This document shows, piece by piece, positions 25,614 to 48,710 of a DNA stretch of 64,000 bases. Made by a program: the position numbers and the translations under genes. Each line of letters begins with the position of its first letter. The stretch's first letter is position 1. The notes below the pieces were generated by a model. The model searched no databases, was not told where the DNA came from, and was given only the letters and a program-made list of their open reading frames with translations. This DNA is from Candidatus Andersenbacteria bacterium RIFCSPHIGHO2_02_FULL_46_16 (GTDB taxonomy: Bacteria > Patescibacteriota > Andersenbacteria > UBA10190). Where the stretch lies: NCBI GenBank assembly GCA_001817065.1, contig MHHQ01000005.1:18651-82650 (forward strand), given 5' to 3'.

Positions 25614-26498
25614 ATGAATCCGATAAATAAAATGGGGTGGCGAGTAGTGGGGATGACGACAGTGGTTGTATTAGTTATAGCTGGGTTATATTGGGGAGGA
25701 CAGAAATGGCTTAAAGGAGACGGTGATCAAACAACGACACCAGGCGGGTCTTTGTCTTTGGCCGATAAAACGCGAGATAGCGATGGCGATGGGATGGCCG
25801 ATTTGTACGAAACAGCTTTCTATAGTACTAATCCCAATAGTGCTGATACAGACGGTGATGGAACGGGTGATCGGGACGAGGTGGTGGCTGGCCGAGATCC
25901 GCTGATTCCAGGTCCAAACGATGTCAGTAAGCCGGCAACGGGTGAGCAAATCACTCAAGTGGACACCTTTACCAAAAAATATTTGGCATCGTTGCCAGAG
26001 GATGTGCCGCGCGAACAGATTCTGGATCAAGTAAGAATAGAAGCGTTCGTCAATGCGAATAAGGGAGCATTGCTGCCACCGGTCACTATAACTACTTCAT
26101 CGAATGAGGGAAAAGAGGCAGTGCAGGCTTACTTGGATGCCGTATCCAGCACACATAATAAAGAGTTGCGTATTGTTACGAGCGCAGATGTTGAGGCGGC
26201 ATTCCGGCTGCTGATTAATACCCAAGACAAGCAGCCAATGCAGGGGATTGTTGATGTTTTACGAAAGAATGTAGTGATACTGCAAAAAGTCACAGCACCG
26301 AACGAGGTAGCAGGCTTGCACGAAAAGATGATCGCAGCGACAACCGCGCTCCAAATCAACAGCGAGGGATTACTTAATATTGACCAGGATTTTGTCGGCG
26401 GTTTGATTGCGGCGAAAAAAATCGAGGAACTAGGTGGGGTGTTTCAGGAGATGGCGACATCGGTTAAGGAATTGGAGACTAAGTATGGATTGGAATAA
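25614..26498 (+). CDS. N-terminally membrane-anchored protein with TSP3-like Ca-binding repeats (paralog of 20143..21135)
   Basis: Anchor 'VVLVIAGLYWGG', then 'DSDGDGMADLYE…DTDGDGTGDRDE'. Same architecture as the 20143 gene. Confidence 0.55.
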   Translation: MNPINKMGWRVVGMTTVVVLVIAGLYWGGQKWLKGDGDQTTTPGGSLSLADKTRDSDGDGMADLYETAFYSTNPNSADTDGDGTGDRDEVVAGRDPLIPGPNDVSKPATGEQITQVDTFTKKYLASLPEDVPREQILDQVRIEAFVNANKGALLPPVTITTSSNEGKEAVQAYLDAVSSTHNKELRIVTSADVEAAFRLLINTQDKQPMQGIVDVLRKNVVILQKVTAPNEVAGLHEKMIAATTALQINSEGLLNIDQDFVGGLIAAKKIEELGGVFQEMATSVKELETKYGLE

Positions 26499-26590
26499 AC
26501 GAAACATGCATAAAACACAGGGGACGAAACATGCACAAAGCACAGAACACAAAACCCAAACAAAGCACAAAACTAACAGACCAAACAAAT
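26499..26590 (+). repeat. A+C-rich strand-biased intergenic repeat (family core CACAAAGC(C/A)CAAACAAA(A/G)CACA)
   Basis: 'gaaacatgcacaaagcacagaacacaaaacccaaacaaagcacaaaac'. The plus strand is almost devoid of G and T. Same family as 30798-31075, 32013-32180 and 33240-33300. Confidence 0.75.
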
Positions 26591-26620: not shown

Positions 26621-28360
26621 ATGGAAATAAGGAAACAAGAAAAAGAATATCGGAAAAAACTAAGCGTCGGGGCGCTAGTTTTGGGTTTAGTGGCTTTAAG
26701 CATGACGGCGGACGTACGTGATGCCTGGGCCGATCCGCATGGGATATTTTATACAGCAATCGGGCAACAACAATTGTTTTTTAACGTGTTAGCGGCACTG
26801 GATCAGGCCGACTATGTGGAAACAGCCTTTGATCGAGAAGCGCGCCGAAAAGCCCGGGAAGCAGTATCTGCCGAGCAGCCTTTTGCCAAAGAGACTGAGT
26901 CGGGCGGACGCTTTACAAAAGAAACAGAGGTGGCCAGCGATAGCGGATACTTAACACAGCCCGGCACACCGACATTGCTTAACCGAGCAGTGACTTTGGA
27001 TGGAGCAGACCTGTACACTGATCAGCTAGTGCGGGAATTCGGGGCGGAATCGGCGAGGCGTAACGCGGCAGCGGAGCTGCTGCAGACACTGTGCGCATAT
27101 GGGTTTGGTATTAAGGAATGTGATAATGAAATTAAACCAGGGCTAACACCTGAGCAGAGACAGGCCGAGGTCTTGGCTATGGAGCAGCGCCGGCGTGAAG
27201 CAGTAGTGGTAGATCCGTTGGAGTGGCAAGCTATGCCTGTTTTAAATGGTGTTTTAGCCGCATTGAATTCGGGAACAGAGGAGGATGAGACTGAACGAGC
27301 TTTAAGATGGGTATTTCAGATTAATGAACCATATGCTTTTTCAAACGAAGTGGCGTTATGGCGTCAGCAAATAAACCAACTACCCGAGTTGGAAAGACCA
27401 GCGCATCTGGCAACGCTGCAAGGGATGATTGATGAAGTGGCAACGCAATATATGCCAGATAAATCAGTGTCTTGGCCGTTTTTAGAAATTAAAACCGAGG
27501 CGGACGGAAGTGGCTCTTATAGACATCTTATATGGAACCCTATTAGCGCTTCTGATTGTTGGCCTAATAATAGGCGCACTGTCCCTTGTTTGGAATACAA
27601 CTACGGCGAAGCATTGTCTCAGGCTGGTTTGCCCACAGACGTAGCGTCTTATGTGAAAAGAGTTAATGATGCCATTTTTAGCGATTCGTCAAGACTAAGC
27701 AATGTAGCTTCAGAAGCATTTAAAAGAGTGGAATATCAACAAGGTTTGATAGAAAATGAGGGTTTGTTGGCGGACGCGAACCTAAAAAGCAATCCACCTC
27801 CTTCTCCGTCGCCGGACGTAACGCCGTTATCAAGTTACGGGGAATTATCGTTGCTGATTAATAATCCGGTAGCAGCGCGGAAAGCTAGCGTTTATGGCAT
27901 ACCAAACGTACTGGGGCAACTAGCGACCAGCCAGCAAGCCAGTTCGTTAACAGGCTTGGATAATCCGGGAGGCGTGCAATTAGTGAAAAGAAGCGGCAGC
28001 AGCGGTACGCCGGGGAGCGGAGAGCCGGAATGCAGTAATGGAGTAAATGACGACGGTGATAATTATATTGATTACCCGCTGGATCCGGAATGTGCTAGTG
28101 CAACCGACACTTCAGAAAGCCAGTCGGGACCGCAAGCCGCGGCGAGCAACACCGGCCCGCAGGTGGCTGGAGCGCTGGATTTATTATTTAAGCCCAGTGA
28201 GAATTTCTTTGATAAAGATAAGGATCCGACCTCTCCGTCGGCTAATATAATTTCACCAATACTGGAGTTTGGCGCACGCCATGCCTTGCGGGTAATGACC
28301 GCTGGCAAGTGGCGGCCGGGGACAACTGCTGGTGTTACGTGCGGATTTACGTGTGATTAA
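26621..28360 (+). CDS. Secreted protein with a Cys/Asp-rich 'ECSNGVNDDGDNYIDYPLDPEC' motif, hypothetical
   Basis: The track ORF starts at 26531 inside the CA-rich repeat. The probable true start is ATG 26621, preceded by AAGGAAG, followed by a signal peptide 'LSVGALVLGLVALSMTA'. Confidence 0.55.
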   Translation: MEIRKQEKEYRKKLSVGALVLGLVALSMTADVRDAWADPHGIFYTAIGQQQLFFNVLAALDQADYVETAFDREARRKAREAVSAEQPFAKETESGGRFTKETEVASDSGYLTQPGTPTLLNRAVTLDGADLYTDQLVREFGAESARRNAAAELLQTLCAYGFGIKECDNEIKPGLTPEQRQAEVLAMEQRRREAVVVDPLEWQAMPVLNGVLAALNSGTEEDETERALRWVFQINEPYAFSNEVALWRQQINQLPELERPAHLATLQGMIDEVATQYMPDKSVSWPFLEIKTEADGSGSYRHLIWNPISASDCWPNNRRTVPCLEYNYGEALSQAGLPTDVASYVKRVNDAIFSDSSRLSNVASEAFKRVEYQQGLIENEGLLADANLKSNPPPSPSPDVTPLSSYGELSLLINNPVAARKASVYGIPNVLGQLATSQQASSLTGLDNPGGVQLVKRSGSSGTPGSGEPECSNGVNDDGDNYIDYPLDPECASATDTSESQSGPQAAASNTGPQVAGALDLLFKPSENFFDKDKDPTSPSANIISPILEFGARHALRVMTAGKWRPGTTAGVTCGFTCD

Positions 28361-30297
28361 TGATTATGAGGATTATTAGAAACAATATTGCTCTACCCCC
28401 ATACCAGACAATTTCATCAGTCAGGGCAGTGATGGGTGATGGGCTCTTTCATTCCTATAAGAAAGCCTCGTTTTTTAGCCTGTGGTATGGTGGTTTAATT
28501 GTTTTGATACTGGTTTGTTTGGTTGGTTTAAGACCAGCGTTAGCGCAGGAATTAGCACCGGTTGATCTTGATGTGCCTAGGTTGGCGCATGAGACGCAGA
28601 GTGAGCTTATTGCTCTGGGTTGCGAAGAAGTGGATCTTACAAACAAACAGGCTTTGCTAGCGGCCAGAGCGCAGAGCTGGCAACTAATAATACCGGTTGA
28701 TGCTAATGGGAATAGCATGACGTTCTGTTCTATACAGGCAGTAGAAAAATTGCAGCCGTTGAGAGGAGGACAAGTTAAACAAGCCGCGACTGGTTGGCGT
28801 GAAGTATTAGGAAGAATTGGTCTTTTTGGTTTTGATGCCACTTCTTTTCTTCTAACGGGCTCGATTGGTTGGCTTTTTACTTTAGGTGCTCAAATAGGTG
28901 GTTCCGTGTTTAGTTACACTATTTTGCTTTTAACACCGTTGTTTCTTGTTTCTGAGCATATAACAAACAGTACTGTGAGAAGCCTCTGGCCGATAGTTCT
29001 GGGCATAGTTAATCTTGGATTTATGTTAGCTTTGGTTTTTATTGCACTGACAACAGTCTTACGGTTAGAGGTTGGCGGTGGAGTAAGGCGGTCACTGCCA
29101 CGCTTGTTGCTAGCAGCGCTGTTAGTAAATTTTAGTTTAGTGATAGCCGGCGTAGTAATTGATTTTACACGATTGTTAATAAGGGTCTTGGCGGTTGTTT
29201 TCTCGGTGCCTGATCTTACTAGTGACTTGCCTGGTCTTTTAGAGCCAGCTGGTAATTTCGGTCCCATATATGAGGCATTGAAAACCGTGGGGCCGACGTG
29301 GTCATCATCAACTAATGCTCTTAGGGCTTTTATTGGTATGTTAATTGTCTGGATGGTGGCTAGCTCGGGGTTGGTGCTTTTGTTCAATTTGGCAATGCGG
29401 TACATAATGTTGCTTGGTTTGTTGATAGTTTCCCCGTTCGCCTATTTGTTTGTGGCTCTGCCAAATACAGCTAAATTGGCTGGTTTATGGTGGTCATCGT
29501 TTTTTAAATATGTTTTTTATGCGCCAGCAGCACTGTTGATATTGCTGCTAGTTGGGAAGATGAGTCAGATGTCTCTCCCCGGAATCACCGATGGGGTTGC
29601 AAGTGGTTTGGTAAGTGTAATGTTTTTGACCGTCGGTTTTATCGCGGCAGCTCGTGCCGGTAAGTATGCGGGCATTGCGGGATCAGCGGCGATGATTAGT
29701 TTTGCACAAAAAACGGGGCAAAAAGGGAGAAATTTGATGTATAGGGGAGCAAGGGGAATGGGTAGGGGATACATGGCAGCCACAGGGGCTCGAGCTGCCA
29801 CTAAGTATGCTGGTGCGCAGATTGGTTTATTTGGCCGGACGGCCGGTAAAAACCTGTTGTCTTACATTCCTGGTGCGGGCAAAGCAGCAAAGACAAAGGG
29901 TGGCCCGATGGCCGATCGCTTGTTACCAAGTAAAGGTGAACGACAAGCTCGGGCTGCGGCAGTTACGGCGGCCAGGGCTGGTAATTATAATGACCCGTCT
30001 TTGGGATCATCTAGATTGGCAAACAGCGTTGTTGGCGCTCATTTAGCTAGGCAGGCAGGACCTCAGCTTGCAAATATGGGCGCAGTGGGTACCGCAAGCC
30101 AAATTAATGCGGCAGTTAAGAATAAAGAATTAGTTAGAAATTTGGACGATACACAAAGGGCTAATTTAGAAGCTCAAATATTAGTTAATACGTCTTTCAG
30201 TGTTGCCCCAGAAGAAAATGAGAAAGTACGGCAGAGGTTGATCAATGAGTTGAATAACACAATAAGAGACGTTGAATCAAAAGACTATAAAGCCTAA
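28360..30297 (+). CDS. Polytopic membrane protein, VirB6/TrbL-like (putative T4SS channel component)
   Basis: 645 aa, at least 8 TM segments, then a Gly/Ala/Arg-rich hydrophilic tail. Start ATG overlaps the upstream stop (TAATG). Assignment is by architecture and context only. Confidence 0.4.
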   Translation: MIMRIIRNNIALPPYQTISSVRAVMGDGLFHSYKKASFFSLWYGGLIVLILVCLVGLRPALAQELAPVDLDVPRLAHETQSELIALGCEEVDLTNKQALLAARAQSWQLIIPVDANGNSMTFCSIQAVEKLQPLRGGQVKQAATGWREVLGRIGLFGFDATSFLLTGSIGWLFTLGAQIGGSVFSYTILLLTPLFLVSEHITNSTVRSLWPIVLGIVNLGFMLALVFIALTTVLRLEVGGGVRRSLPRLLLAALLVNFSLVIAGVVIDFTRLLIRVLAVVFSVPDLTSDLPGLLEPAGNFGPIYEALKTVGPTWSSSTNALRAFIGMLIVWMVASSGLVLLFNLAMRYIMLLGLLIVSPFAYLFVALPNTAKLAGLWWSSFFKYVFYAPAALLILLLVGKMSQMSLPGITDGVASGLVSVMFLTVGFIAAARAGKYAGIAGSAAMISFAQKTGQKGRNLMYRGARGMGRGYMAATGARAATKYAGAQIGLFGRTAGKNLLSYIPGAGKAAKTKGGPMADRLLPSKGERQARAAAVTAARAGNYNDPSLGSSRLANSVVGAHLARQAGPQLANMGAVGTASQINAAVKNKELVRNLDDTQRANLEAQILVNTSFSVAPEENEKVRQRLINELNNTIRDVESKDYKA

Positions 30298-30299
30298 TC

Positions 30300-30797
30300 T
30301 TGTGCAGATTGTTTAATATGGGTCTTGATTATAATAGTATACCGTCGGGATCGGTGGTAACCGTGTCGCAAGCCGAAGGAGAGCAATATGTGGCGGGATT
30401 GTTTGAATTGCCCCAGATAGCTCGACAAGCCATGGTGTCGACGCGAACAGGGGCGTTTGTGAGAGGCCTGACTAAGGCTTATGGGCTGGAACAGATTAAA
30501 GCGCCGATAATTGCATTGTCAATATTAAAAACAGGGATTGGCAAGATACCGCTTAGTGGGTTGGGGGCTTATTTATCTGGCCAACTAAGGCTTCCTAACG
30601 ATAAAGCGCAAAGGATGGCGCGCGAGATAGAACAAGATTTATTTGAACCAGTTCGGCAGGAGCTGGAGGCGCATTGGGCGAAGCAGAAAAAAGAGGAACC
30701 GGGAAGGCAAGCACAGACGAAAGCGACAGAAGGAGGAGCAAGGAATGTGCTGAATCTTAAGATGGACAAAGCTCCGCCTAAGCCACCGTGGAGATAG
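30300..30797 (+). CDS. Hypothetical protein of the T4SS-like cluster
   Basis: 165 aa, no motif. An alternative start lies at 30318. Confidence 0.4.
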   Translation: MCRLFNMGLDYNSIPSGSVVTVSQAEGEQYVAGLFELPQIARQAMVSTRTGAFVRGLTKAYGLEQIKAPIIALSILKTGIGKIPLSGLGAYLSGQLRLPNDKAQRMAREIEQDLFEPVRQELEAHWAKQKKEEPGRQAQTKATEGGARNVLNLKMDKAPPKPPWR

Positions 30798-31075
30798 TAC
30801 ACAAAACATTCACAAAACACAGTGCACAAAGCCCAAACAAAACACAAAAGACAAACTGATACAAACACGACGCACTTATCCTACCGTTACGGTTGAGAAG
30901 GGGAATGAAACATTCACAAAACACAGTGCACAAAGCCCAAACAAAACACAAAAGACAAACTGATACAAACACGACGCACTTATACTGCTATTACTTTTGA
31001 GAGTAAGGGCGAAACATTCCCAAAACATAGTACACAAAGCCCAAACAAAACACAGTACACAAACACGAATAAACA
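30798..31075 (+). repeat. Tandem array (about 2.7 copies, 104-bp period) of the A+C-rich repeat
   Basis: Unit 'cattcacaaaacacagtgcacaaagcccaaacaaaacacaaaagacaaactgatacaaacacgacgcacttat…' starts at 30807, 30911 and 31015. Copies 1 and 2 are nearly identical; copy 3 is diverged. Confidence 0.85.
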
Positions 31076-31102
31076 GCGCGGACAGACTCTAAATGAGATT
31101 TA

Positions 31103-31483
31103 ATGACACGACATACAAGTCCATATCGTGATCTGGAGGAACGAACATTATTGTTTGCCAAAGAGGTATTAAGAATGTGTCAGTCTTTACCTAAAAGTAC
31201 TATTAATAATAGGTTGATTGATCAACTGATTAGATCGGCCGGGTCAGTAGGGGCGAATTACCGAGAGGCAAACGACGCTATAAGCAAGAAGGATTTTGTT
31301 CATCGTTTACGTATTGCACGAAAGGAAGCAAAGGAAACGAGCTATTGGCTTGATTTGTTACGGGAGGTTAATGTGGAACTGGTGGATAAAATTTCAGTAT
31401 TACAACAAGAGGCAATAGAGCTGAGAAATATCTTGTCTGCTATAATTCAGAAATGTGAGGTTAAGTCCCGTGAACGTGTTTGA
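31103..31483 (+). CDS. Four-helix-bundle protein (TIGR02436 family, '23S rRNA intervening-sequence protein'-like)
   Basis: 126 aa. 'SAGSVGANYREA…KDFVHRLRIARKEAKETSYWLDL' matches the family signature. Confidence 0.65.
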   Translation: MTRHTSPYRDLEERTLLFAKEVLRMCQSLPKSTINNRLIDQLIRSAGSVGANYREANDAISKKDFVHRLRIARKEAKETSYWLDLLREVNVELVDKISVLQQEAIELRNILSAIIQKCEVKSRERV

Positions 31484-31545
31484 TAGGTTTGTAATATTGG
31501 ATTTTGTTTGGGCTTTGTGTTTTGAGTTTTTATATAGTTTATAAT

Positions 31546-31992
31546 ATGCGATTTCAAGTTCCCCAATTCGTCGACATTGAAGATCGGATTATTGGTCCGC
31601 TGACGCTAAAGCAATTTGCTTTTTATCTGATTGCGGCCATGATCATTGGCATTTTATATGTCATGGTAAGTTTAGGCGTGCTGATCGTGTTGGCATTGCC
31701 GATTGCGGGGACAGCTTTGCTGTTTGCTCATGCGAGGTTTTATGGGCAGCCGTTCGGTCAGGTGCTGATTAATGGCATTAGCTATGCTATGGGGTCGAAG
31801 TTGTATTTATGGCGAAGAACTGACAAGGATAACAAGATAAAAATCAGCGGGTCGGAGTTTAGCGATGAAGCGGAAGTATATGGGGTTTCATCTATTGACT
31901 TGATGAGCCAAACTTTAAACACAGAAGGAAATGTCGTGGGAGCAGATTTAGAGGACCCGTTGCTCGAAGAACCGGAGGGGAGCAAGGATTGA
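31546..31992 (+). CDS. PrgI-family protein (VirB3-like T4SS component)
   Basis: 'MRFQVPQFVDIEDRIIGPLTLKQFAFYL' matches the PrgI N-terminal signature, followed by two TM segments. The track ORF starts at TTG 31504. ATG 31546 is directly abutted by TATAAT. Confidence 0.6.
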   Translation: MRFQVPQFVDIEDRIIGPLTLKQFAFYLIAAMIIGILYVMVSLGVLIVLALPIAGTALLFAHARFYGQPFGQVLINGISYAMGSKLYLWRRTDKDNKIKISGSEFSDEAEVYGVSSIDLMSQTLNTEGNVVGADLEDPLLEEPEGSKD

Positions 31993-32012
31993 TTTTATAC
32001 AAAGGGCAGGTT

Positions 32013-32180
32013 AGAAACATTCCCAAAGCACAGTGCACAAAACCCAAACAAAACACAACAACCTAAACCTTACAAACAATCGACGAAACTTATCCAAAAC
32101 ACAGTCTTTGCAAACTTAACAAACCATAACAAAGCGGTGACAAAATTTTACGAACAACGATAAAAACAGATAAAAACACA
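32013..32180 (+). repeat. A+C-rich strand-biased intergenic repeat copy
   Basis: 'gaaacattcccaaagcacagtgcacaaaacccaaacaaaacacaaca…cgacgaaacttatccaaaacacag…'. Confidence 0.75.
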
Positions 32181-32188
32181 GGGTATGG

Positions 32189-32350
32189 AAGTCACATTAT
32201 GAAATGCCACAAATATAGTGACGGGCCCTGTCGGCGCTGCACCCCCACCCGACGGCTTCGGTCTGCCAGGCGGGCAGCCTGCAGGCGCTCGGTGGGGGTC
32301 CCCCGCGCCGCCACCCGTTTATTTAAGAGTGGCATTTCATAATGTGACAT
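32189..32350. repeat. Palindromic element: perfect 20-bp inverted repeats flanking a 118-bp GC-rich core
   Basis: GTCACATTATGAAATGCCAC at 32191-32210 and its exact reverse complement at 32329-32348. The core is about 75% GC and internally self-complementary (GCGCtgcaCCCCCACC / GGTGGGGGtcccccGCGC). Confidence 0.75.
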
Positions 32351-32507
32351 CTATACAAACTTAATTCCAAAATATCCTCTTAAGGACCAATGAATGAACG
32401 AGATGGGGACCGTGGGAAGGAAAGGGAAGAAGTAGAAATACGGAGAAGGGGAGGCTTGCAACAAAAAGAATAGAAAGGGGCAGGGCGATAAGGTAAACTA
32501 TTAAGTG

Positions 32508-33239
32508 ATGTTAGAGAAGGACCAAAAAGGCAAATCCAGTCAGGAACTAGTGCAGATTACGGCGGTACGCGACGGAGTGGTGGTATTGGGGAATAATACC
32601 TTGCGGGCGACTTTGATCGTGTCTTCATTAAACTTCGCCTTAAAGTCTGAAGAGGAGCAAGATGCAATAATTTATGCCTTTCAAGGTTTTCTAAACTCAC
32701 TGGATTTCCCGGTACAGATTTTAGTGATGTCGAGAAAGCTGGATATTACATCCTATTTAGAGGAGCTGGATTCTCGTAAAGAACGGCAAAAAAATGAACT
32801 GCTGCGCTTGCAGATGGCCGAATATATTAATTTTATTTCAGAATTGGTCAAGGGTGGTAATATTATGACCAAGACTTTTTTTGTCTCCGTTTCGTTTGCG
32901 ATGGCGCAGAGCCGACAGTTGAACACGTTGGAAAAACTGGCCAAGACATGGCAAGGCATTGGAAAAGGCAATAAGCCATTTACTGACGTAGAGTTTGAGC
33001 ATTACAAGAAGCAATTAATGCAACGGGTGGAGCAAGTAGCTGTTGGTTTAAGAGGAGTGGGTTTACGTGTGGCACCGCTACAGACGCAAGAAGTGCTGGA
33101 ATTGTTTTACAGCATCCTAAATCCTGTTACGTCACGCAATTTACGTTTGCACAATGTAGCCAAACTGAGCGTAGAGGAAACCGGGGCACCAGACTTAGTG
33201 TCTAGCAACAGATCAGAGCAGCCGTGGGTGAGCAGGTAG
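32508..33239 (+). CDS. VirB4/TrbE-family N-terminal domain (CagE_TrbE_VirB-like), a separate ORF
   Basis: 'ITAVRDGVVVLGNNTLRATLIVSSLNFALKSEEEQDAIIYAFQGFLNSLDFPVQILVMSRKLD' resembles the conserved N-terminal region of VirB4 ATPases. No Walker motifs. The ORF ends at TAG 33237-33239. Confidence 0.5.
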   Translation: MLEKDQKGKSSQELVQITAVRDGVVVLGNNTLRATLIVSSLNFALKSEEEQDAIIYAFQGFLNSLDFPVQILVMSRKLDITSYLEELDSRKERQKNELLRLQMAEYINFISELVKGGNIMTKTFFVSVSFAMAQSRQLNTLEKLAKTWQGIGKGNKPFTDVEFEHYKKQLMQRVEQVAVGLRGVGLRVAPLQTQEVLELFYSILNPVTSRNLRLHNVAKLSVEETGAPDLVSSNRSEQPWVSR

Positions 33240-33300
33240 AGTACAAAACGTAGACAAAGCACAGACAGGCACAAAGTCCAAACAAAGCACAAGCCGTACA
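33240..33300 (+). repeat. A+C-rich strand-biased repeat copy, located between the two VirB4 pieces
   Basis: 'gtacaaaacgtagacaaagcacagacaggcacaaagtccaaacaaagcacaagccgtaca'. Confidence 0.7.
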
Positions 33301-33468
33301 TGTTTTATAAACTGCCATTAATCGGTAAAACCGTACAAACGGGATAGATTAGGCATTAGAAAATAGAAATATAGTAACCAGTAATCCGTAACTTGAAAAT
33401 GAGAATAAATAGGGTAGAGAGGGATGTTTATGGCTCGCTAGGGCTGGTTTTAATATATCTGTTATACT

Positions 33469-35298
33469 GTGGATATGCTGGGATTTAAAATTAAGAGGCA
33501 AACTAAGCAACAAAAGAAACCCGAGAAAGCCTTGCCTGAAGACCAGGCTAAGTTAAAGCAATGGCAGGAGGGAGTGGTGCGTTTGAAGGACATTCTAGCC
33601 CCAGCGGCTTTTTCAGTGTCCACTAAATATGTTGAGATAGACGGCAAGTTTGCCACGACGTTATTTGTGACGGCTTATCCGCGCTATCTGGAAACTAATT
33701 GGCTGTCACCAATAGTGAATTTTGATGTGGAGTTCGATATGGGGATGTTCGTTTATCCACAAGACTCCGCCACGATTTTAAGGCAATTGAAAAAACAGAT
33801 CACCCAAGTGTCCGCTTCGATAATCATGCGGACGGAGAAAGGTAAAGTGAGGGATCCACAGTTAGAAACTGCCTACCGAGACATTGAAGAACTGCGGGAC
33901 AGACTGGTGCAGGGAACGGAACGATTTTTTCAATTAAGTTTGTATCTGACGCTATATGCCGACAGTCAAGAAGAGTTAGAGGAAACTGTCGGACAGATTG
34001 AAGTGTTGTTAGAAGGCCGCCTGGTCTATATTAAGCCGGCTATATTCCAAATGAAGGAAGGATTCTTTTCGACCATTCCGCTGGGGCAGGACAAGCTGGC
34101 GAGAACTACCAACATGAGCTCATCGTCGCTATCAACAACCTTCCCTTTCGTGAGCTCCGACCTTTCTAGCAGTAATGGAATTTTGTTCGGTATTAATTTG
34201 CACAACAACAGCTTAATATTGTTTGATCGATTTAGTTTGGGCAATGCTAATATGGTGATCTTCGCTAAGTCTGGCGCGGGTAAATCGTACGCGGTTAAAC
34301 TTGAGATATTGCGGCAATTGATGTTTGATACGGAAGTGATTGTAATTGATCCGGAAAAGGAATACCGTTATTTGTCTGACTCGGTGGGCGGGGCTTATCT
34401 GCGGATAGCCACAGCGTCCGACCACAGGATCAACCCATTTGATTTGCCGGAGTTGGGAGAGGAAGACGAGCCAGAAACGGTGCTGCGGGAGAATATAACT
34501 CGTTTAATTGGTTTGGTTTCGCTGATGGCCGGGGGGTTTTCGCCAGAGGAAAACTCGGTGGTAGATAAGGCTTTGTGGGAAACATATGCGCTGAAAGATA
34601 TTACTAAAGGCATTAGATGGACAAAGCCTGAGGTGCCGACTTTGCAGGATTTTTATAATATTGTTGGCGACATGGAAGGCGGCGCTAATATTGCCTTGCG
34701 GATTGAGCGGTTTGTGGAAGGGACTTTTGCTGGGGTTTTTAACCGACCAACCAACATCGACTTGGATAATCAACTAGTAGTGTTCAATGTGCGTGATATG
34801 GAGGAGGAGCTGCGGCCGCTAGCTATGTATGTCGTCTTGGGGTTCATTTGGAACAAAGTACGTAGCTCGTTAAAGAAAAGAATACTGGTAGTGGACGAGG
34901 CGTGGGTGATGATGCAACACGAGGAGTCGGCTAAGTTTATGTTCTCCATCGCAAAACGGGCACGCAAATATTACTTAGGTGTAACGACGATTACGCAGGA
35001 TATACAGGATTTTCTGGATTCTAAGTACGGTAAACCGATTGTCACAAACTCTTCTTTGCAGCTGCTACTGCGCCAGTCGCCAGCGGCGATCGATTTGTTG
35101 GCGGATGTGTTTTATCTGACCGACCACGAGAAGTTTAGATTATTGGAAAGTGATGTGGGAGAAGGTATTTTATTTGCCGGGCTGAAACATGTAGCGATTA
35201 AAGTAGTGGCCAGTTATGCGGAGGACCAGGTAATAACCAGCGATCCACAGCAGGTGCTGGCGATTGAGGCGGCGAAGAGAGAGATGGCGGCTAATTGA
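33469..35298 (+). CDS. virB4: VirB4/TraE-family type IV secretion ATPase (C-terminal two-thirds)
   Basis: Walker A 'FAKSGAGKSY', Walker B 'ILVVDEAWVMM', 'YYLGVTTITQDIQDF'. N-terminal region 'YVEIDGKFATTLFVTAYPRYL' is VirB4-like. Track start is GTG 33469; first ATG at 33475. Confidence 0.8.
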   Translation: MDMLGFKIKRQTKQQKKPEKALPEDQAKLKQWQEGVVRLKDILAPAAFSVSTKYVEIDGKFATTLFVTAYPRYLETNWLSPIVNFDVEFDMGMFVYPQDSATILRQLKKQITQVSASIIMRTEKGKVRDPQLETAYRDIEELRDRLVQGTERFFQLSLYLTLYADSQEELEETVGQIEVLLEGRLVYIKPAIFQMKEGFFSTIPLGQDKLARTTNMSSSSLSTTFPFVSSDLSSSNGILFGINLHNNSLILFDRFSLGNANMVIFAKSGAGKSYAVKLEILRQLMFDTEVIVIDPEKEYRYLSDSVGGAYLRIATASDHRINPFDLPELGEEDEPETVLRENITRLIGLVSLMAGGFSPEENSVVDKALWETYALKDITKGIRWTKPEVPTLQDFYNIVGDMEGGANIALRIERFVEGTFAGVFNRPTNIDLDNQLVVFNVRDMEEELRPLAMYVVLGFIWNKVRSSLKKRILVVDEAWVMMQHEESAKFMFSIAKRARKYYLGVTTITQDIQDFLDSKYGKPIVTNSSLQLLLRQSPAAIDLLADVFYLTDHEKFRLLESDVGEGILFAGLKHVAIKVVASYAEDQVITSDPQQVLAIEAAKREMAAN

Positions 35299-35320
35299 TA
35301 ATAGAGTAAGTACGTGTTAT

Positions 35321-35983
35321 ATGGTGTTTGACGCTGGCCAAGATGGAGGTAGGCAAGAAGAAAAACAAGGTTTACGTAATCAAGTCTCAGACACGAGAAG
35401 GAAAGTGCTGCAAAGAAAAGCTGAATTAGCTGCGCTTAAAACCGCAGAAAAGGTTTCGAGTAAAGCAACTGGGGTAGTGGGGAAACAAGCGGGTCGCGCA
35501 GGGGGAAAAGTAGCCGCTAAGACGGCAGGTGTTCCGGTCCAAGTTGGTGAAAAGGCATTAGCAGCGACAGGTGTCGGCGCGCCTGTTGCTGCCGCAATAA
35601 TGGCTGCTCGACTAGTGGCGGAAAAAGGGGTAAGTGAAGCGACAGGGCAAATTGCTAAGCAGGCTTCCCGCCAATTGAGCAAAGCGCCGTTTAAACCATT
35701 AATAGCCGCACAAAAAAGACGCGTAAAAAAGGCCCAACAAAACGCGGGGGAAGCTGAAGAGGCTTTAGCGGAGTTTGGTGAAGATAGCGTAATGGACATT
35801 GTGGATGGAAAAATAAGGAAGGTTGTAGGAAAATTTGTTAGTATACCGGTGGAGGTCGCGTTTGGGTTGTTGTTGACGGTTTTTATGTTCCCATTTGTTA
35901 TTTTGGCAGTGGGTATAGTATTAGCAATAGTTAATATAGAAAGGTTGATACCAATAATTAGGCTGATGTCGTCAATTATTTAA
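35321..35983 (+). CDS. Ala/Lys-rich protein with C-terminal TM segments, hypothetical T4SS-cluster component
   Basis: The track ORF starts at TTG 35264 and overlaps virB4. ATG 35321 lies after the virB4 stop. The C-terminus has two hydrophobic helices. Confidence 0.4.
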   Translation: MVFDAGQDGGRQEEKQGLRNQVSDTRRKVLQRKAELAALKTAEKVSSKATGVVGKQAGRAGGKVAAKTAGVPVQVGEKALAATGVGAPVAAAIMAARLVAEKGVSEATGQIAKQASRQLSKAPFKPLIAAQKRRVKKAQQNAGEAEEALAEFGEDSVMDIVDGKIRKVVGKFVSIPVEVAFGLLLTVFMFPFVILAVGIVLAIVNIERLIPIIRLMSSII

Positions 35984-36007
35984 CTTTTTGAGTAGTGAGC
36001 TAACCCA

Positions 36008-36436
36008 ATGAAATATTTTTTACATAGCAAAATAAGAAGTGGAAAGGTTTTAATTATAACGTTTATACTATTCTATGGTTTAGGGTTGCCACATTCAGTT
36101 AAAGCACAGGCCGCGGTCCCTTGCCCTTGGGGCTTTTTGGAAGTGCTTGATGTAGACGGCGTTAGAGATATTTGCAGTATTATTGGTGGCAGCGGTGCTA
36201 CGGCTACAACGGCAATTGGAAGATTGTTGAGTTGGGTGACGTTAAGCTTGACAGCGCTAGTGATGATGGCAGCAGCGGTTGGCATTGTGATAGGCGGTTA
36301 TATATATATGACGGCGGGGGGCAGCGCGGATCGGGTGCAGCTGGCAAAAACTTGGATAATTGCTGCTTTACTGGGGATTACGATCGCTTTAACGGCTTTT
36401 GTGCTGCTGAATACAATTAGCACAACACTGGTTTGA
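36008..36436 (+). CDS. VirB2/TrbC-like pilin (putative)
   Basis: 142 aa. Signal peptide ending 'VKAQA', then two hydrophobic helices separated by a short loop ('VTLSLTALVMMAAAVGIVIGGYIYMTAGGSADRVQLAKTWIIAALLGITIALTAFVLL'), the classic T4SS pilin topology. Confidence 0.5.
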   Translation: MKYFLHSKIRSGKVLIITFILFYGLGLPHSVKAQAAVPCPWGFLEVLDVDGVRDICSIIGGSGATATTAIGRLLSWVTLSLTALVMMAAAVGIVIGGYIYMTAGGSADRVQLAKTWIIAALLGITIALTAFVLLNTISTTLV

Positions 36437-36441
36437 TTTCA

Positions 36442-37995
36442 TTAAAGATGAATTTTTCTAGAGGGATGATTAGAAGTCTGGTTTTTTGTTATAGTAAGCA
36501 GGAGATGACTGAAGGTTTGCGCGATTAGACAAGTAACTATTGTCCAATGGAGAGCAGCGAGATCGTTTTTCCAGTAAATGGTATCGGCTAGGCCGAAGAT
36601 AAGAATAGACAATAGGGCGAGGGTAAGGGTTTGTGTTTGGTAAGTGATCAAAAAATGATTGGTTTGTATTGGTGTGATTGAGTGTTGATTATGCCCACCG
36701 GTGATTTTTAGTACGCTACGCCAAGCATGAACGAGAATATAGGCATTGAGCAGGATAAAGCTGACTAAGCCCAACAAGCCGGTGTTAAGCCAGAAAGAGA
36801 GAAGCCAGTTGTGGGGATCTCGAAAGACAAATTCTGGTAGCGGGGATTCACATTTTTTTGTTGAAAGCTGACAGTTAGCGAATTGTGTAAAGCGTTCGTG
36901 CAGTTGGTTTTGGTAGGCCGGTTCGAAAGTACCCAGCCCGACGCCGAGAAGGGGGTGATCCTTTATCAGATCCACGCTGATGCTCCAAAGCTGTTGGCGA
37001 ACAGACAATGAATTATGAGTATCCGAGGAGGAAAGGGGCTGCAGGAGATAGGTTAAGCGTCCCGTGGACGATAGATAACCAAGGGAGATAAACACGAGAG
37101 TAAGAACAGCCCCCCAGCGAAGGTAAAGAGGTCGACGAGTGGCGGTAGATGTTGAGGTTGGTTGAAAAAGGATTAAGCCGATAGAGACGGAAATAAAAGC
37201 GGCAGAAATACCAGCGACTGACTGCGTAGCGAGCAGGGCGGCAGCGAGGATGAGCGAAGAGGGGAGATAGAAAAGTCGTTGATGGCGGTTAAAGAACAAC
37301 CAGACGGAGATAACAAGTAGCGGGACTAAATATAGTGCTAAAGAGTTTGGTACGTCATAAACACTCTTGATACGAGCAAGGTGATTTATTTGCGACAACC
37401 CAAGCAACGCGACAATATTACCGGACAGAACAAGTGATTGAATAATCAAGAAATAATAATTAGGTGAGAAAGTTTTGGCAGGAAGAGTTTTTGTTTCGGC
37501 AAAGGGGCTTCGAAGAGGTTCTGGGGCAGAGTCAGATGAAGGGAAGAAAGACTGGGCGGATATTATCAGCCAACCCAGCAGAAGGGGAACAATGATCCAT
37601 CCTTTTAGTATGCCCAGACTGGTAAGGATGTGTGGCGAGATAATCGTGCTAACGATGGCCGAAAGGACAAAAAGAGCAATCAGCAGATGGAGGAATGACG
37701 GTAGGGCGCGCCAGATTATTGGCCACTGTCTGCGAATAGAAGGTTGAATAAAGGTAAAAAAGAAAACAGTTACAATAGACGCTTCCAGTAAATTGGTGGG
37801 AAGACTGAAGAAAGAAAACTGAATAAGATAGGTGGGCAATAAGGCTGTGAGTAAAACCAGCGCGCTGGACGGGCGAGACAAAGTTAACAGGGACAGCAGA
37901 AGAAGAGCAGGGACGATAAGAAAAACGATCATGGACGGGGGATGATTAAGGAAATAATAATTGCCACGGTGATCAGAAGGTGGGAGTACAGCCAA
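36442..37995 (-). CDS. O-antigen ligase (Wzy_C) family polytopic membrane protein
   Basis: 'HPLLGVGLGTFEPAYQ…HNWLLSFWLNTGLLGL' Wzy_C-like motif. At least 10 TM segments. Confidence 0.6.
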   Translation of the reverse strand: MAVLPPSDHRGNYYFLNHPPSMIVFLIVPALLLLSLLTLSRPSSALVLLTALLPTYLIQFSFFSLPTNLLEASIVTVFFFTFIQPSIRRQWPIIWRALPSFLHLLIALFVLSAIVSTIISPHILTSLGILKGWIIVPLLLGWLIISAQSFFPSSDSAPEPLRSPFAETKTLPAKTFSPNYYFLIIQSLVLSGNIVALLGLSQINHLARIKSVYDVPNSLALYLVPLLVISVWLFFNRHQRLFYLPSSLILAAALLATQSVAGISAAFISVSIGLILFQPTSTSTATRRPLYLRWGAVLTLVFISLGYLSSTGRLTYLLQPLSSSDTHNSLSVRQQLWSISVDLIKDHPLLGVGLGTFEPAYQNQLHERFTQFANCQLSTKKCESPLPEFVFRDPHNWLLSFWLNTGLLGLVSFILLNAYILVHAWRSVLKITGGHNQHSITPIQTNHFLITYQTQTLTLALLSILIFGLADTIYWKNDLAALHWTIVTCLIAQTFSHLLLTITKNQTSNHPSRKIHL

Positions 37996-39374
37996 CTATT
38001 GATAAATTGGGAGTGGATGAAGAGGGCTGTAAGACTATACAGTCCGGCCAGGGCGCGGGGATCGCGGTAAAGGAGTGAGCGCGTAATAAATAAACGAAGC
38101 AAATAAGACCAGGGCAGAAGGAAAAGGGAAAGACCGATCAGGCCGGTGGTGGCCCAGATAGTTAGTAAGCTGTTATCAGCTCCCGCGCGGGAGTGAATAG
38201 AGTAATTGGCCACAGTTTGCGCCTCGCCCGGGGCAAATTGATAGGCATTGTAACCAACCCCCAATAATGGATTATCCCGGACAATTTGCCAACCGTTGGC
38301 CAAGCTGGCGAGACGAAGCTCGACGGTGGGGTCGATGGTGAGAAGGCCAGACAAACGGGGACCAAGGGCAAAAATCATGATTGTACTGATAATTATTGCT
38401 AAACCAAGAACAGCGCTGATAGTGACGAGGCGGCGCCGGTTAGACTTAACTTCTTGCTGATAAAGAAACAGGGGGGAGAGGAGAATGGCCGCTGCGCCAG
38501 CAGCCACTTGGGTGCTGCGAGATTGGGTGGTAATAAGAGCTATTATTACTAGAATAAAACCCGGTAGGCGCCATGTTTTATTCTGCCAAAGAAGAATCAT
38601 AGGGAGAGCCAGCACAAGAAATAAGCCAATAAAGTTGGGGTCTAGCCAGGTAGAAACTAAACGAAATTGATGCGGATCCCAACCCGCCCGGGCTAACAAA
38701 GAAAGGTCTGGGAAAAACGCCAGCTGCGCTAAACCGGTAGATACTAACAACAAAACAGTGAGGTTTAAACCATACCAGACAAAATGGTGGAGGGCGGGGC
38801 TCTTAAGCAAATAGATAAGGGCGGGTAAAAGCAATAAATTAGCGGATAAACGAAGCCAGTAGGAAAAGGCAACTAAAACGTTACTTAAACCAAGGTTGGG
38901 CGCGTGAAGGATAAGAGTAAAAAGTGACCAGATGATAAAGGGCGTGATCAGCCAGAGGATTACTCGGTTGAGTTGAGCTGACTGACTGCTTATTTTTTGT
39001 GCTGCCCGTTCGTCCAAGCGAGAGGTTGTGTTAGTAATTGATTGATGGTGGAGCTCGATGCTTGGAGGAAGTTTTCGGAATAGGCATGGTGGGCGGGAGA
39101 TGTTAAGGTGAATGTTTTGATCAGCGGATCGAATATAAGTTTTTTTTATACCGACGATGAGCAAGAGAATAGCGACGGCCAAGTCACTGGGTAACAGTCC
39201 GCCACCTTGGCCCGGTAAGGGGAGACGAACCAACTGACCGGTTAAAAGAGAGAAGAATAACAAACCGATAGCTAAACGCGGTAACCGAATTAACCAAACA
39301 GCAAGAAGGGCCCCTAGTCCACCAATGGCGACAACAAGCGGTAAAGCCAACGAAGATAACGCTGAAAAAGCCAT
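37929..39374 (-). CDS. O-antigen ligase (Wzy_C) family polytopic membrane protein (second copy)
   Basis: 'LLGVGYNAYQF…HSRAGADNSLLTIWATTGLIGL' Wzy_C-like motif. The maximal ORF overlaps the downstream ligase gene by 67 nt, so the real start is probably internal. Confidence 0.55.
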   Translation of the reverse strand: MAFSALSSLALPLVVAIGGLGALLAVWLIRLPRLAIGLLFFSLLTGQLVRLPLPGQGGGLLPSDLAVAILLLIVGIKKTYIRSADQNIHLNISRPPCLFRKLPPSIELHHQSITNTTSRLDERAAQKISSQSAQLNRVILWLITPFIIWSLFTLILHAPNLGLSNVLVAFSYWLRLSANLLLLPALIYLLKSPALHHFVWYGLNLTVLLLVSTGLAQLAFFPDLSLLARAGWDPHQFRLVSTWLDPNFIGLFLVLALPMILLWQNKTWRLPGFILVIIALITTQSRSTQVAAGAAAILLSPLFLYQQEVKSNRRRLVTISAVLGLAIIISTIMIFALGPRLSGLLTIDPTVELRLASLANGWQIVRDNPLLGVGYNAYQFAPGEAQTVANYSIHSRAGADNSLLTIWATTGLIGLSLFLLPWSYLLRLFITRSLLYRDPRALAGLYSLTALFIHSQFINSWLYSHLLITVAIIISLIIPRP

Positions 39375-44908: not shown

Positions 44909-44926
44909 ATATAGAGCTAATAAAGA

Positions 44927-45190
44927 CTACGGTTTTACTTGAGGAACAGGGTCAGGGCCACCAGCGGTGAAGGGATGACAGCGAACGACGCGGCGGAGGG
45001 CTAACAATAGACCGGGCCAGCCGTGTTGATTGATAGCTTGGACTGCATACTCGGAGCAAGTAGGTGTGAAGCGGCATATGCCGTGCGGAAAAATTAGTTT
45101 AGTAAGGCTATGATCAGGAGAAACAGTGATTTGGTATAAACGAATAAGTCGTCCGATGAAGTATAGGACGAGGTTTGGCTTAGTGGACAT
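44927..45190 (-). CDS. yidD: Membrane protein insertion efficiency factor YidD
   Basis: 87 aa. 'YQITVSP……CRFTPTCSEYA' YidD signature. Confidence 0.75.
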   Translation of the reverse strand: MSTKPNLVLYFIGRLIRLYQITVSPDHSLTKLIFPHGICRFTPTCSEYAVQAINQHGWPGLLLALRRVVRCHPFTAGGPDPVPQVKP

Positions 45191-45253
45191 AGAATAAGAG
45201 TATCGGTTATTGATGAAAGAGAAAACTAAGAGGGCGGGTACTCTAAAGTAAGG

Positions 45254-45583
45254 TCAGATGGAGGACTGAGACTGGCTATTTAACGATGCAACCAGGCTGT
45301 CTTTTAGCGGCGAAATAGAGCTGAGCTGACCAATGGCCGGCTTAGCAATTAACACAAGATTGGTTCCCGCCGGAAAGTCCGCTGTCAGCGGCCGAATTAT
45401 CTCGCGTAGCCAGCGCTGGTATTTGTGCCGACGAACGGCAGACGGACTAATTTTTTTACTAACAACGCAAGCAAATTGAACTTGGGGAGATGGGTTAGGT
45501 GGGAGATATATATGGATCCTAACGTAAGGAGTGTGCAGGGCTTGGCCGTGGCAGATGGTTTGCTTAATGTCTTTTTCCTTCAT
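45254..45583 (-). CDS. rnpA: Ribonuclease P protein component
   Basis: 109 aa, basic protein, between rpmH and yidD. Confidence 0.8.
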   Translation of the reverse strand: MKEKDIKQTICHGQALHTPYVRIHIYLPPNPSPQVQFACVVSKKISPSAVRRHKYQRWLREIIRPLTADFPAGTNLVLIAKPAIGQLSSISPLKDSLVASLNSQSQSSI

Positions 45584-45726
45584 TACTGACGAGGAGTGAC
45601 GCGATGGCGCTTTTTCCGTCGGCGGCTAGCCACAACACCGGTGCGTTTTTTCCGTTTTTTTGCGGCCAGAAAACCGAATCGACGAGAGCGTCTGCGTTTG
45701 GATGGCTGATAAGTTCTTTTAGGCAT
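45583..45726 (-). CDS. rpmH: 50S ribosomal protein L34
   Basis: Hand translation gives MPKRTYQPSKRRRSRRFGFLAAKKRKKRTGVVASRRRKKRHRVTPRQ (47 aa), with L34 hallmarks. Its TAA stop overlaps the rnpA ATG. Not in the ORF track (below 60 aa); the track ORF 45564..45755 is a wrong-frame artefact. Confidence 0.85.
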   Translation of the reverse strand: MPKRTYQPSKRRRSRRFGFLAAKKRKKRTGVVASRRRKKRHRVTPRQ

Positions 45727-45807
45727 AATAAGTAAATACAATTATTTAGTAACAATACATACCTAGCGCTCGTTGGTCAAATGGTATGCGATAGAATTGT
45801 CTATGCA

Positions 45808-45880
45808 ATGTTATCAACAGATTGTCCACACTATTTCCACAAATAGATGATTTTGTGCTTTACAGCTCTGTGGATAACTA
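45808..45880. promoter_or_regulatory. DnaA-box cluster in the rpmH-dnaA intergenic region (dnaA promoter / oriC part)
   Basis: TTATCAACA (45811), TTGTCCACA (45822), TTTCCACAA (45834) and perfect TGTGGATAA (45869, reverse complement of TTATCCACA), all within 90 bp before the dnaA ATG. Confidence 0.55.
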
Positions 45881-45895
45881 TGTTATTATTCATCG

Positions 45896-47302
45896 ATGAC
45901 TGATGAACAGCTATGGAAGGCAGCGTTGGGTCAGTTGGAGCTTAAAGTAAGTCAGGGAAACTTCTTAACCTGGTTTAAGTCTACTAAGATCCAACACCGA
46001 CAAGGAGGAAAAGTGGTTATTGAAACACCCTCTGCGTTTACGTTCGAGTGGTTATCTAAGAAATATAAAATGCCGATCCTGGAAACCTTACAAGGGCTTG
46101 ACGCGAGTATTATCAACATCGACTTTACGATAAGCTCAGCAACTGCCCGACAAAGAGTACTCAAAAAAAACTTTCGGGTGATGGCTCACAAAGTGGCGAA
46201 AAAAGCACCAACGGAAATAATAGGGGAGGGCAACAAACCAGCAGTAGCGCCAATCGCGGATAGTCAGGCGCAGCGATTAGCTAAAACCCTTAACCCAAAA
46301 TATGTTTTTGATACCTATGTGGTCGGCCCCAGCAACGAAATGGCTCACGCCGCTTGCCGCGCGGTAGCGTCTAAGCCAGGGGAAGCGTATAACCCGCTAT
46401 TTATTTATGGCGGCGTTGGTTTAGGAAAAACCCATTTATTGCAGGCGGTGGGTAATGAGATACTGAAGAACACTCCGTCAGCGAGAGTGTTGTACGCATC
46501 TTCAGAAAAGTTTATTAATGAGTTTGTCCAGTCAATCAAAGAAAGAAGAACCCAGGCCTTTAAACAATATTACCGGGAAGTTGATGTACTAATCATAGAC
46601 GATGTGCAGTTTATGGCGGGTAAAGGGAAGACGCAGGAAGAGCTTTTCCATACATTCAACGCCCTCCATAGTCAGAACATTCAAGTGATCCTGAGTAGCG
46701 ACCGATCACCGCGGGCCATACCTACCCTAGAAGAAAGACTGCGCTCACGATTGTCCGGAGGAATGATTGCCGATATAAAACAACCAGACTACGAAACACG
46801 TTTGGCAATTATCTCAAGTAAAGCAGAGAAGCTTGGCAGCACGATTGACGATGAGTCACTCGCGTACATCGCTAAGAACATTCAAAAGAACGTGCGCGAG
46901 TTGGAAGGAGCCTTAAACCGGGTTATTGCCCACTGTGAGCTAAGTAACAGTAAGGCAAGTTTGGAATACACTAAAAAGATATTGGAGGGGATATTAGAGC
47001 AGTCAAACCAAAAAACGATCGACTCTAAAAGTGTGCTGGAAGTAGTTAGTTTGTACTACAACATGTCGCTTGACGACCTGTGCGGCAAGTCTAGAAAGAA
47101 AGAGATTGTCCGGCCGCGCCAGATTGCGATGTACCTGCTGCGCAAAGAAAATCGCGTTTCTTTTCCAACTATCGGTGATTATTTTGGCGGCCGAGACCAC
47201 ACCACAGCGATGCATGCCTGTGAAAAAATTGAGAAGTTACTCGAACACGACGAAGAGTTATTGCAGGAACTTAACTTTATCAGGGAGCGTCTCTATGCAT
47301 AA
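45896..47302 (+). CDS. dnaA: Chromosomal replication initiator DnaA
   Basis: Walker A 'GGVGLGKTHLLQAVG', 'VDVLIIDDVQF', C-terminal DNA-binding helix. 468 aa. Confidence 0.95.
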   Translation: MTDEQLWKAALGQLELKVSQGNFLTWFKSTKIQHRQGGKVVIETPSAFTFEWLSKKYKMPILETLQGLDASIINIDFTISSATARQRVLKKNFRVMAHKVAKKAPTEIIGEGNKPAVAPIADSQAQRLAKTLNPKYVFDTYVVGPSNEMAHAACRAVASKPGEAYNPLFIYGGVGLGKTHLLQAVGNEILKNTPSARVLYASSEKFINEFVQSIKERRTQAFKQYYREVDVLIIDDVQFMAGKGKTQEELFHTFNALHSQNIQVILSSDRSPRAIPTLEERLRSRLSGGMIADIKQPDYETRLAIISSKAEKLGSTIDDESLAYIAKNIQKNVRELEGALNRVIAHCELSNSKASLEYTKKILEGILEQSNQKTIDSKSVLEVVSLYYNMSLDDLCGKSRKKEIVRPRQIAMYLLRKENRVSFPTIGDYFGGRDHTTAMHACEKIEKLLEHDEELLQELNFIRERLYA

Positions 47303-48708: not shown

Positions 48709-48710
48709 GT

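Follow-up and report, generated by a model that had tools for sequence, protein, structure and literature searches.

A palindrome among secretion-system-like genes of a Candidatus Andersenbacteria genome is probably a TA-targeting non-autonomous DNA transposon (MITE)

When a long, GC-rich palindrome turns up within a cluster of secretion-system-like genes, the obvious question is whether it belongs to that system or has arrived there from elsewhere. The question is raised here by a locus of Candidatus Andersenbacteria bacterium RIFCSPHIGHO2_02_FULL_46_16, a representative of the CPR/Patescibacteria, whose genomes of ~1 Mb are commonly described as poor in mobile DNA. The analysed stretch of 64,000 nucleotides, from GenBank contig MHHQ01000005.1, is referred to below as the window. 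The palindrome occupies the spacer between a PrgI-like gene (31504-31992) and a TraC-like/VirB4 N-terminal gene (PF26593; 32505-33239), followed by the gene of a VirB4-type ATPase (33469-35298). The original prediction, which had correctly described the flanking genes as PrgI-like and VirB4-N, gave preference to an oriT or nick-site hairpin of the adjacent T4SS-like system and listed as alternatives a MITE with terminal inverted repeats, a small RNA or ribozyme, and a recombination site. Below we argue that the palindrome is a non-autonomous DNA transposon (MITE) of the Correia/RUP-like kind, moved in trans, in a Parcubacteria clade related to GW2011_GWA2_45_14, a reading to which we would assign a probability of about 0.8.

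The left arm of the palindrome, GTCACATTATGAAATGCCAC (32191-32210), is the exact reverse complement of the right arm, GTGGCATTTCATAATGTGAC (32329-32348), so that the perfect 20-nt inverted repeat reported originally is real; none of 100 dinucleotide shuffles of the window yielded an inverted-repeat match, even when up to 3 mismatches were allowed. The 118 nt between the arms are GC-rich, as had been stated, but the figure of 75% given for them does not hold: their GC content is 68.6%, and 81% is attained only in an inner block of 96 nt (32222-32317), which holds the top 80-nt GC value in the 64-kb window. The remainder of the spacer contains 38.5% GC as compared to 46.9% for the window, and the respective values for the whole element, its core and the host genome are 58%, 81% and 47%. 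Each strand is predicted to form one long hairpin with interruptions (folding energies of -98.1 and -96.8 kcal/mol, z scores of -9.95 and -8.3), whereas none of 200 shuffles folds as stably.

Weaker pairing continues outward to 32183-32356, past the coordinates originally assigned to the palindrome. The true ends of the element, 32184 and 32355, are set by the points at which the flanks of its copies diverge: since the flanks of independent copies are unrelated directly outside TATGGAAG...CATCTATA, the unit in the window corresponds to 32184-32355. An nhmmer search with the family alignment matched this same interval at E = 1e-55 and found no second copy in the window. The ends are sharp (TA/TGGAAG...CATCTA/TA, with slashes at the borders), and the termini, written together with the target dinucleotides, read TA-TGGAAGTCACATTATG...CATAATGTGACATCTA-TA. 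The features of the locus are as follows.

31993-32504, + strand: enlarged spacer between the PrgI-like and TraC-like genes, 512 nt, which hosts the element; 29 nt in relatives
32184-32355, + strand: whole insertion unit at the filled site, TA + 168-nt element + TA (172 nt), from flank divergence and nhmmer
32184-32185, no strand assigned: left TA of the target-site duplication, from the left ends of the copies (12/12 start with TA) and the virtual empty site of contig L013
32186-32210, + strand: left terminal inverted repeat TGGAAGTCACATTATGAAATGCCAC, which includes the 20-nt arm; 23/25 complementary to the right end
32237-32260, + strand: left GC-rich block CTGCACCCCCACCCGACGGCTTCG, conserved without change in nearly all copies of subfamilies A and B
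32261-32278, + strand: apical stem-loop GTCTGCC-AGGCG-GGCAGC; the apex is replaced or 2-44 nt longer in subfamily B
32279-32305, + strand: right conserved GC-rich block CTGCAGGCGCTCGGTGGGGGTCCCCCG, invariant save for one Y and one K position
32329-32353, + strand: right terminal inverted repeat GTGGCATTTCATAATGTGACATCTA; 23/25 complementary to the left end
32354-32355, no strand assigned: right TA of the target-site duplication, from the right ends (most are TA) and the L013 excision test

The dispersal of the element became apparent when metagenomes were scanned with the 25-nt core pattern CTGCAGGCGCTCGGYGGGGKTCCCC, which is part of the right block and matches the right half only, so that left-half remnants would escape it. 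The scan yielded 20 loci, which, upon removal of overlaps, fell into two groups. Subfamily A (172 nt) is represented by 11 distinct flanks, the window included, with 0-2 substitutions relative to the window copy, the sole private change of the latter being T32262, a position at which the rest of subfamily A has C. Subfamily B (174-216 nt) is found at 7 loci. Altogether, 18 loci in assemblies of closely related Parcubacteria (CPR) contain a copy, and their neighbouring genes are unrelated, which demonstrates both the multicopy dispersal of the element and, through the divergence of the flanks, its exact ends. As to the hosts, UW94_C0018G0018 of 'Parcubacteria group bacterium GW2011_GWA2_45_14' matches, at 100% identity, a protein encoded next to one of the other copies, and CPR bacteria are the source of the homologues of the TraC-like protein, the named ones (~57-60% identity) being from Candidatus Andersenbacteria or Parcubacteria. 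Beyond these assemblies, blastn found no match to the element in plasmid and phage collections, and scans of viral contigs with the arm consensus, the core and the end consensus, checked by blastn and nhmmer, returned nothing or chance matches only. Among GTDB species representatives, a 19-nt core word did not retrieve the element: the 15 matches, all in GC-rich genomes, were 18-39 nt long (most about 19-25), and nhmmer with the family alignment detected no copy in those 15 genomes.

All 12 left ends carry TA, as do most right ends, apart from those of L002 (AA) and L022 (TT). In contig L013, the element splits a gene with the domains PF23988 (DUF7309) and PF22007 (DUF6930) into two co-directional open reading frames. 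Removal of 170 nt, which leaves one TA, restores an ORF of 352 aa, whereas removal of 172 or 169 nt results in a frameshift and an early stop. The restored protein has over 100 full-length homologues of 335-390 aa with the same PF23988 + PF22007 architecture, and its alignment with six of these full-length homologues is ungapped over the junction (WHD/TWQ, as compared to WHNSWQ in the closest one). Since it is the 170-nt removal that restores the conserved frame, the element inserts at TA and duplicates it; judging from this one virtual empty site at the protein level and from the TA termini, the dinucleotide was present once before the insertion and twice thereafter. The other eight full copies lie between genes, in both orientations relative to their neighbours; the excision tests performed on them restored no ORF, as expected of intergenic insertions. 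With several near-identical copies and a TA duplication, the evidence is that which the original prediction itself had named as indicative of a MITE, so that an interpretation listed there as secondary now takes first place.

The class of MITEs described by Delihas (2008) comprises non-coding elements of less than 200 bp that have terminal inverted repeats, 5'-TA-3' termini and a target duplication and form a long stem-loop (PMC2229807). The palindrome shares these traits: it is small and non-coding, its terminal inverted repeats match at 23 of 25 positions (with the inner 20 nt perfect), it is present in several dispersed, near-identical copies with unrelated flanks, a long stem-loop is predicted for its transcript, and the target-site duplication with 5'-TA-3' termini is seen, with the empty site at the protein level only. 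The one usual trait that it lacks is A+T-richness, which is not strictly defining. TA-specific insertion with a 2-bp TA duplication is, furthermore, the property expected of MITEs that depend on IS630/Tc1-mariner enzymes; a mobilisation at TA by IS630-Spn1 has been proposed for the RUP element (PMC2229807).

The following sequence of events can, hence, be envisaged. An element of 168 nt, with 25-nt terminal inverted repeats and nearly all of its length paired as one hairpin, inserts at a TA dinucleotide, which is duplicated. As the element encodes nothing, its transposase must come from elsewhere, and, from the TA specificity and the 2-bp duplication, we infer that it is of the IS630/Tc1-mariner type: such a DDE enzyme would bind the 16-18 conserved outermost nt at either end, and it would cut and paste the element. 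The window copy would then be carried as a passenger by the T4SS-like operon, in a spacer that tolerates it, and any influence on the operon, for instance, by an RNA hairpin within the polycistronic transcript, would be a side effect. An autonomous partner was sought by its ends: neither the rest of the window nor the other CPR loci retrieved contain motifs with up to 2 mismatches to those of the element, and no IS630-type transposase domain was found among the scanned ORFs of the window. Two properties of the element are unusual for a MITE, namely, that the central GC-rich block, and not the ends alone, is the most conserved part, and that the composition is not A+T-rich. Against the scheme count, furthermore, the two right ends that read AA and TT and the consistently higher stability of the + strand hairpin, which a purely double-stranded mechanism does not predict.

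The only trace of a transposase in the window is the C-terminal half of an IS701-family protein (12077-12595; NF049921, profile positions 160-316 of 318), which lacks the N-terminal part and appears to be a decayed insertion sequence. It was considered as a partner and rejected, there being no similar ends next to it, and is unlikely to be the mover of the MITE. IS701 is not known to be a TA-duplicating family.

Comparison of the two subfamilies reveals what has been maintained in the element. The outer 16-18 nt of each end are conserved, along with the left and right core blocks, whereas the inner arms, the adjoining stem and the apex differ, mostly by two-sided changes that preserve pairing, such as GCCAC/GTGGC to GTCAT/ATGAC and GGCGC/GCGCC to GCTTC/GAAGC; the apex also differs by indels of 2, 24 and 44 nt. 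The long stem-loop is predicted in both subfamilies. In an alignment of six sequences, pairing is kept in 97.3% of the cells, with double changes in 10 of the 63 pairs, as compared to 35-49% of paired cells in slid controls, and the covariation score of 0.195 exceeds those of all 500 shuffles (mean 0.112). The six sequences amount to two or three lineages, so that the constraint on pairing is supported but the statistics are not strong. The element does not code for protein: in subfamily B, stops or frameshifts interrupt the ORFs of 47-52 aa seen in the window copy, and a coding function was rejected. The 52-aa ORF, taken as a candidate protein, matched only its own locus in another assembly.

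The conservation of the centre could mean that the element, while mobile, carries a GC-rich core that works as structured RNA or as a protein-binding hairpin, for instance, as an RNase III or stability site, as an attenuator in operons, or as a small RNA with its own promoter. Blocks of 24 and 27 nt that are invariant between subfamilies with diverged stems would agree with such a function, and so would the GGC-TTCG-GCC (UUCG-type) motif in the core and two weak promoter-like sites, with hexamers in both arms. The promoter/terminator scan, in turn, revealed no terminator-like site. The consensus structure includes 10 G.U columns versus 1 A.C column, in line with the more stable + strand, but the structure obtained with RNAalifold is biased to counting G.U on the strand that is folded. 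A search of the whole window against Rfam at the gathering score produced no match besides two tRNAs, and a permissive search of 31500-33000, with E values up to 10, produced only chance-level matches (E >= 2.9). Moreover, the copies are oriented both ways relative to the neighbouring genes, and one of them destroys a gene, as a selfish element does. A function of the core in addition to mobility appears, therefore, improbable, and the small RNA or ribozyme listed in the original prediction draws no support from Rfam or from the mixed orientation of the copies, even though the slight strand asymmetry leaves some room for a single-strand role.

This asymmetry bears on the mechanism of transposition as well. 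In five of five sequences, the hairpin of the + strand exceeds that of the - strand in stability, by 0.4-11.9 kcal/mol, and wobble-type mismatches (G.T) favour the + strand in ratios from 4:1 to 9:5, counts that are not independent; together, these values hint weakly at a role for one particular single strand. The main mechanistic rival of the cut-and-paste scheme is a hairpin transposon that moves as a single strand, like REPIN/RAYT or IS200/IS605 elements; its Y1 (HUH) transposase would excise the folded strand and insert it 3' of TA, without a true duplication, the right-hand TA being the element's own cleavage site. The excision test does not discriminate here: the filled site has two TA dinucleotides and the restored gene one, and a fixed TA target combined with an element-borne terminal TA would look identical to a duplication. 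The compensatory changes, which keep the pairing over the full length of the element, well beyond the ends, and the preference of both folding stability and wobble mismatches for the + strand would also fit a folded single-stranded intermediate. The structure of the ends, however, argues otherwise. They are true inverted repeats (23/25), unlike those of IS200/IS605 elements, and the arm GTCACATTATGAAATGCCAC is not self-complementary, so that there is no palindromic REP unit; thus, neither ends devoid of inverted repeats nor palindromic REP arms, the hallmarks of the two kinds, were found. No Y1 transposase domain was detected among the scanned ORFs of the window, and the strand asymmetry is, after all, small. 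We consider a single-strand mechanism to be quite unlikely and prefer a TA-targeting MITE that moves as double-stranded DNA.

The genomic setting permits one to judge whether the palindrome is a part of the secretion-like cluster. In three relatives that retain the cluster (contigs L003, L004 and L005, with TraC-like proteins 87% identical to that of the window), the distance from the PrgI stop to the TraC-like start is 29 nt, with no copy of the element, as compared to 512 nt in the window, so that the element is missing from the orthologous spacer. In L004/L005, a 76%-identical copy of the palindrome resides in the next spacer, 11 nt past the TraC-like stop, whereas L002, a 93% relative, carries a diverged copy upstream of the TraC-like gene; contigs L002 and L001 (JGI, 100% identical) begin in or near the hairpin centre. 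The TraC-like/VirB4 spacers of the four relatives were too diverged to align and provided no empty site at the nucleotide level. The PrgI/TraC-like spacer is, then, an insertion hot spot, and the element is no part of the conserved cluster. The window itself is chromosomal, with genes for IF-2, RbfA, RuvB, RuvC and YidC and with dnaA-dnaN-recF, dnaA being located at 45896, 13 kb from the element, and no relaxase domain was found among its scanned ORFs.

These data leave very little of the leading idea of the original prediction. An oriT or nick-site hairpin could appeal only to the placement between the PrgI-like and VirB4-like genes and to the strength of the hairpin; against it stand the 18 dispersed loci with unrelated neighbours (at least 11 of them in the subfamily of the window copy), the spacer that is empty in relatives at 87% identity, the insertion that splits an unrelated gene, and the chromosomal location without a relaxase in the window. 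Neither a linked relaxase nor conservation of the palindrome at this place was found, and we regard the idea as scarcely tenable. Nothing was found in support of a recombination site either. The secretion cluster of the window thus loses one candidate functional element, and hairpins in the T4SS-like clusters of CPR bacteria should not, by default, be taken for oriT.

Several other properties of the cluster and its surroundings deserve a record. VirB4 is split into two genes, those for the TraC-like protein (PF26593) and for the ATPase, in the window and in all relatives examined (L002-L005). The two are separated by a spacer of 81 to 356 nt, which is the site of the MITE in L004/L005. A gene for a four-helix-bundle protein (PF05635/TIGR02436, '23S rRNA intervening sequence protein', Avd-like) is found at 31103-31483 of the window and at 677-985 of L004 but is missing from L003 (between 3314 and 3468), so that, at the same place in the cluster, its presence varies among close relatives. 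In the window, this gene is preceded by three tandem units of a CA-rich repeat of about 95-105 nt (GAAACATTCMCAAARCACAGTGCACAAARCCCAAACAAAACACA...), an arrangement that suggests a small mobile cassette. Single CA-rich repeats are scattered over several other spacers of the T4SS-like cluster, including one just left of the MITE (32014-32093); the repeats of the window are located at 30804-30898, 30900-31004, 31011-31064, 32014-32093, 26498-26572 and 33246-33292, and L004 has one at 509-585. This is a family of intergenic repeats distinct from the MITE. Farther along the window, a spacer of ~1 kb (44909-45895), which follows yidC and jag-like genes and precedes dnaA, dnaN and recF (45896-49901), is likely to be the chromosomal replication origin; the GC skew is positive on the + strand throughout the window and does not change sign at 44909-45895.

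The behaviour of the element in assemblies requires separate consideration. Eight public contigs (L001, L002, L012, L015, L019, L022, L023 and L027) end inside the element, several of them at or near the hairpin centre, as would be expected of a repeat, and the element is, indeed, a recurrent breakpoint in CPR metagenome assemblies. It is almost inconceivable that the palindrome as such arose artificially, by misassembly or chimera formation, for instance, when contigs were joined by fold-back: although contigs L001, L002, L015, L022 and L027 break at the hairpin centre and one assembly holds half copies only, the complete element is identical in the window, in L046 and at other loci in at least four JGI assemblies. 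Contig L046 of an ENA assembly is 100% identical to 28160-38350 of the window, the complete element included, which speaks against an artefact of one assembly, provided that L046 was assembled separately from the source of the window.

The assembly with half copies is Ga0075963 (GW2011_GWA2_45_14), where all six copies (L016, L020, L021, L026, L027 and L029) are right halves only. Three of these (L026, L021 and L029) have a full counterpart elsewhere, in comparison with which each lacks 126-141 nt; the deletions take the left half of the element together with 51-67 nt of flank. All three end at the foot of the apical stem, no more than 2 nt from GGCTT/CGGCCTGCC, and the microhomology amounts to 0-2 nt. 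The break in L020 runs through the T arm of a tRNA-Pro(CGG)-like sequence. Since full copies with identical flanks are present in other assemblies, the half copies probably reflect misassembly at the hairpin, which is the simplest reading, but they may also be real deletions triggered there. The latter option would gain weight if the element were more than a selfish MITE, that is, if its invariant, asymmetric core (24 + 27 nt) were a functional single-stranded module of the + strand, either RNA or DNA folded for transposition, in which case the half copies would be real deletions at the hairpin tip. We deem this combination improbable; if true, however, the half copies would illustrate the way in which cruciform-forming repeats are disarmed in a minimal CPR genome.

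If the palindrome is, as we believe, a TA-targeting MITE, then at least 11 near-identical copies, with one of the insertions disrupting a conserved gene, point to ongoing transposition in reduced CPR genomes. The full-text literature that was searched contains no description of MITEs in CPR/Patescibacteria, which shows their absence from that literature and not their non-existence. The main value of the element is practical and concerns the assembly and annotation of CPR genomes: it accounts for contig breaks and probable misassemblies in public CPR bins and can be used as a strain-level marker.

Among the known systems, the closest resemblance is to the Correia/NEMIS elements of Neisseria, which are likewise non-coding, about 100-160 bp long, with terminal repeats of roughly 25 nt, TA termini and a TA duplication, lie mostly between genes and sometimes within operons, and form a long hairpin in transcripts, with no transposase known for either family (PMC2229807). 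There is, however, no sequence similarity past the terminal TATAG; Correia elements are A+T-rich, with an IHF site, and are hosted by a proteobacterium, whereas the element described here, hosted by a CPR bacterium, has an invariant core of 81% GC and is paired over nearly its full length. With RUP of Streptococcus pneumoniae and other Stowaway-like MITEs of the IS630/Tc1-mariner group, it shares the small size, the TA target with its duplication, and the pattern of dozens of near-identical intergenic copies with presumed mobilisation in trans (PMC2229807). RUP, however, has ends that correspond to those of a resident IS630-family element; in the sequence searched here, neither an element with such matching ends nor a transposase of the IS630 type was found.

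Two further families are similar in appearance. REPINs, the RAYT-mobilised doublets of REP sequences, are also dispersed hairpins of ~100-170 nt with co-evolving halves, but they consist of two palindromic REP units, cause no target duplication and have a RAYT gene in the genome, whereas in the present case the arms are non-palindromic, filled sites have two TA dinucleotides, and no Y1 transposase was found among the scanned ORFs. Rickettsia palindromic elements (RPE) are mobile palindromes of 100-150 nt that, like the element in L013, can enter protein-coding genes; RPEs, however, remain in frame and are translated, whereas the 170 nt brought in by the CPR element include stop codons, and the gene is split. 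What distinguishes the present element from these systems is, besides the lack of a detectable partner IS, the combination of a CPR host, an invariant GC-rich core in a genome of 47% GC, and pairing over nearly the full length of the element.
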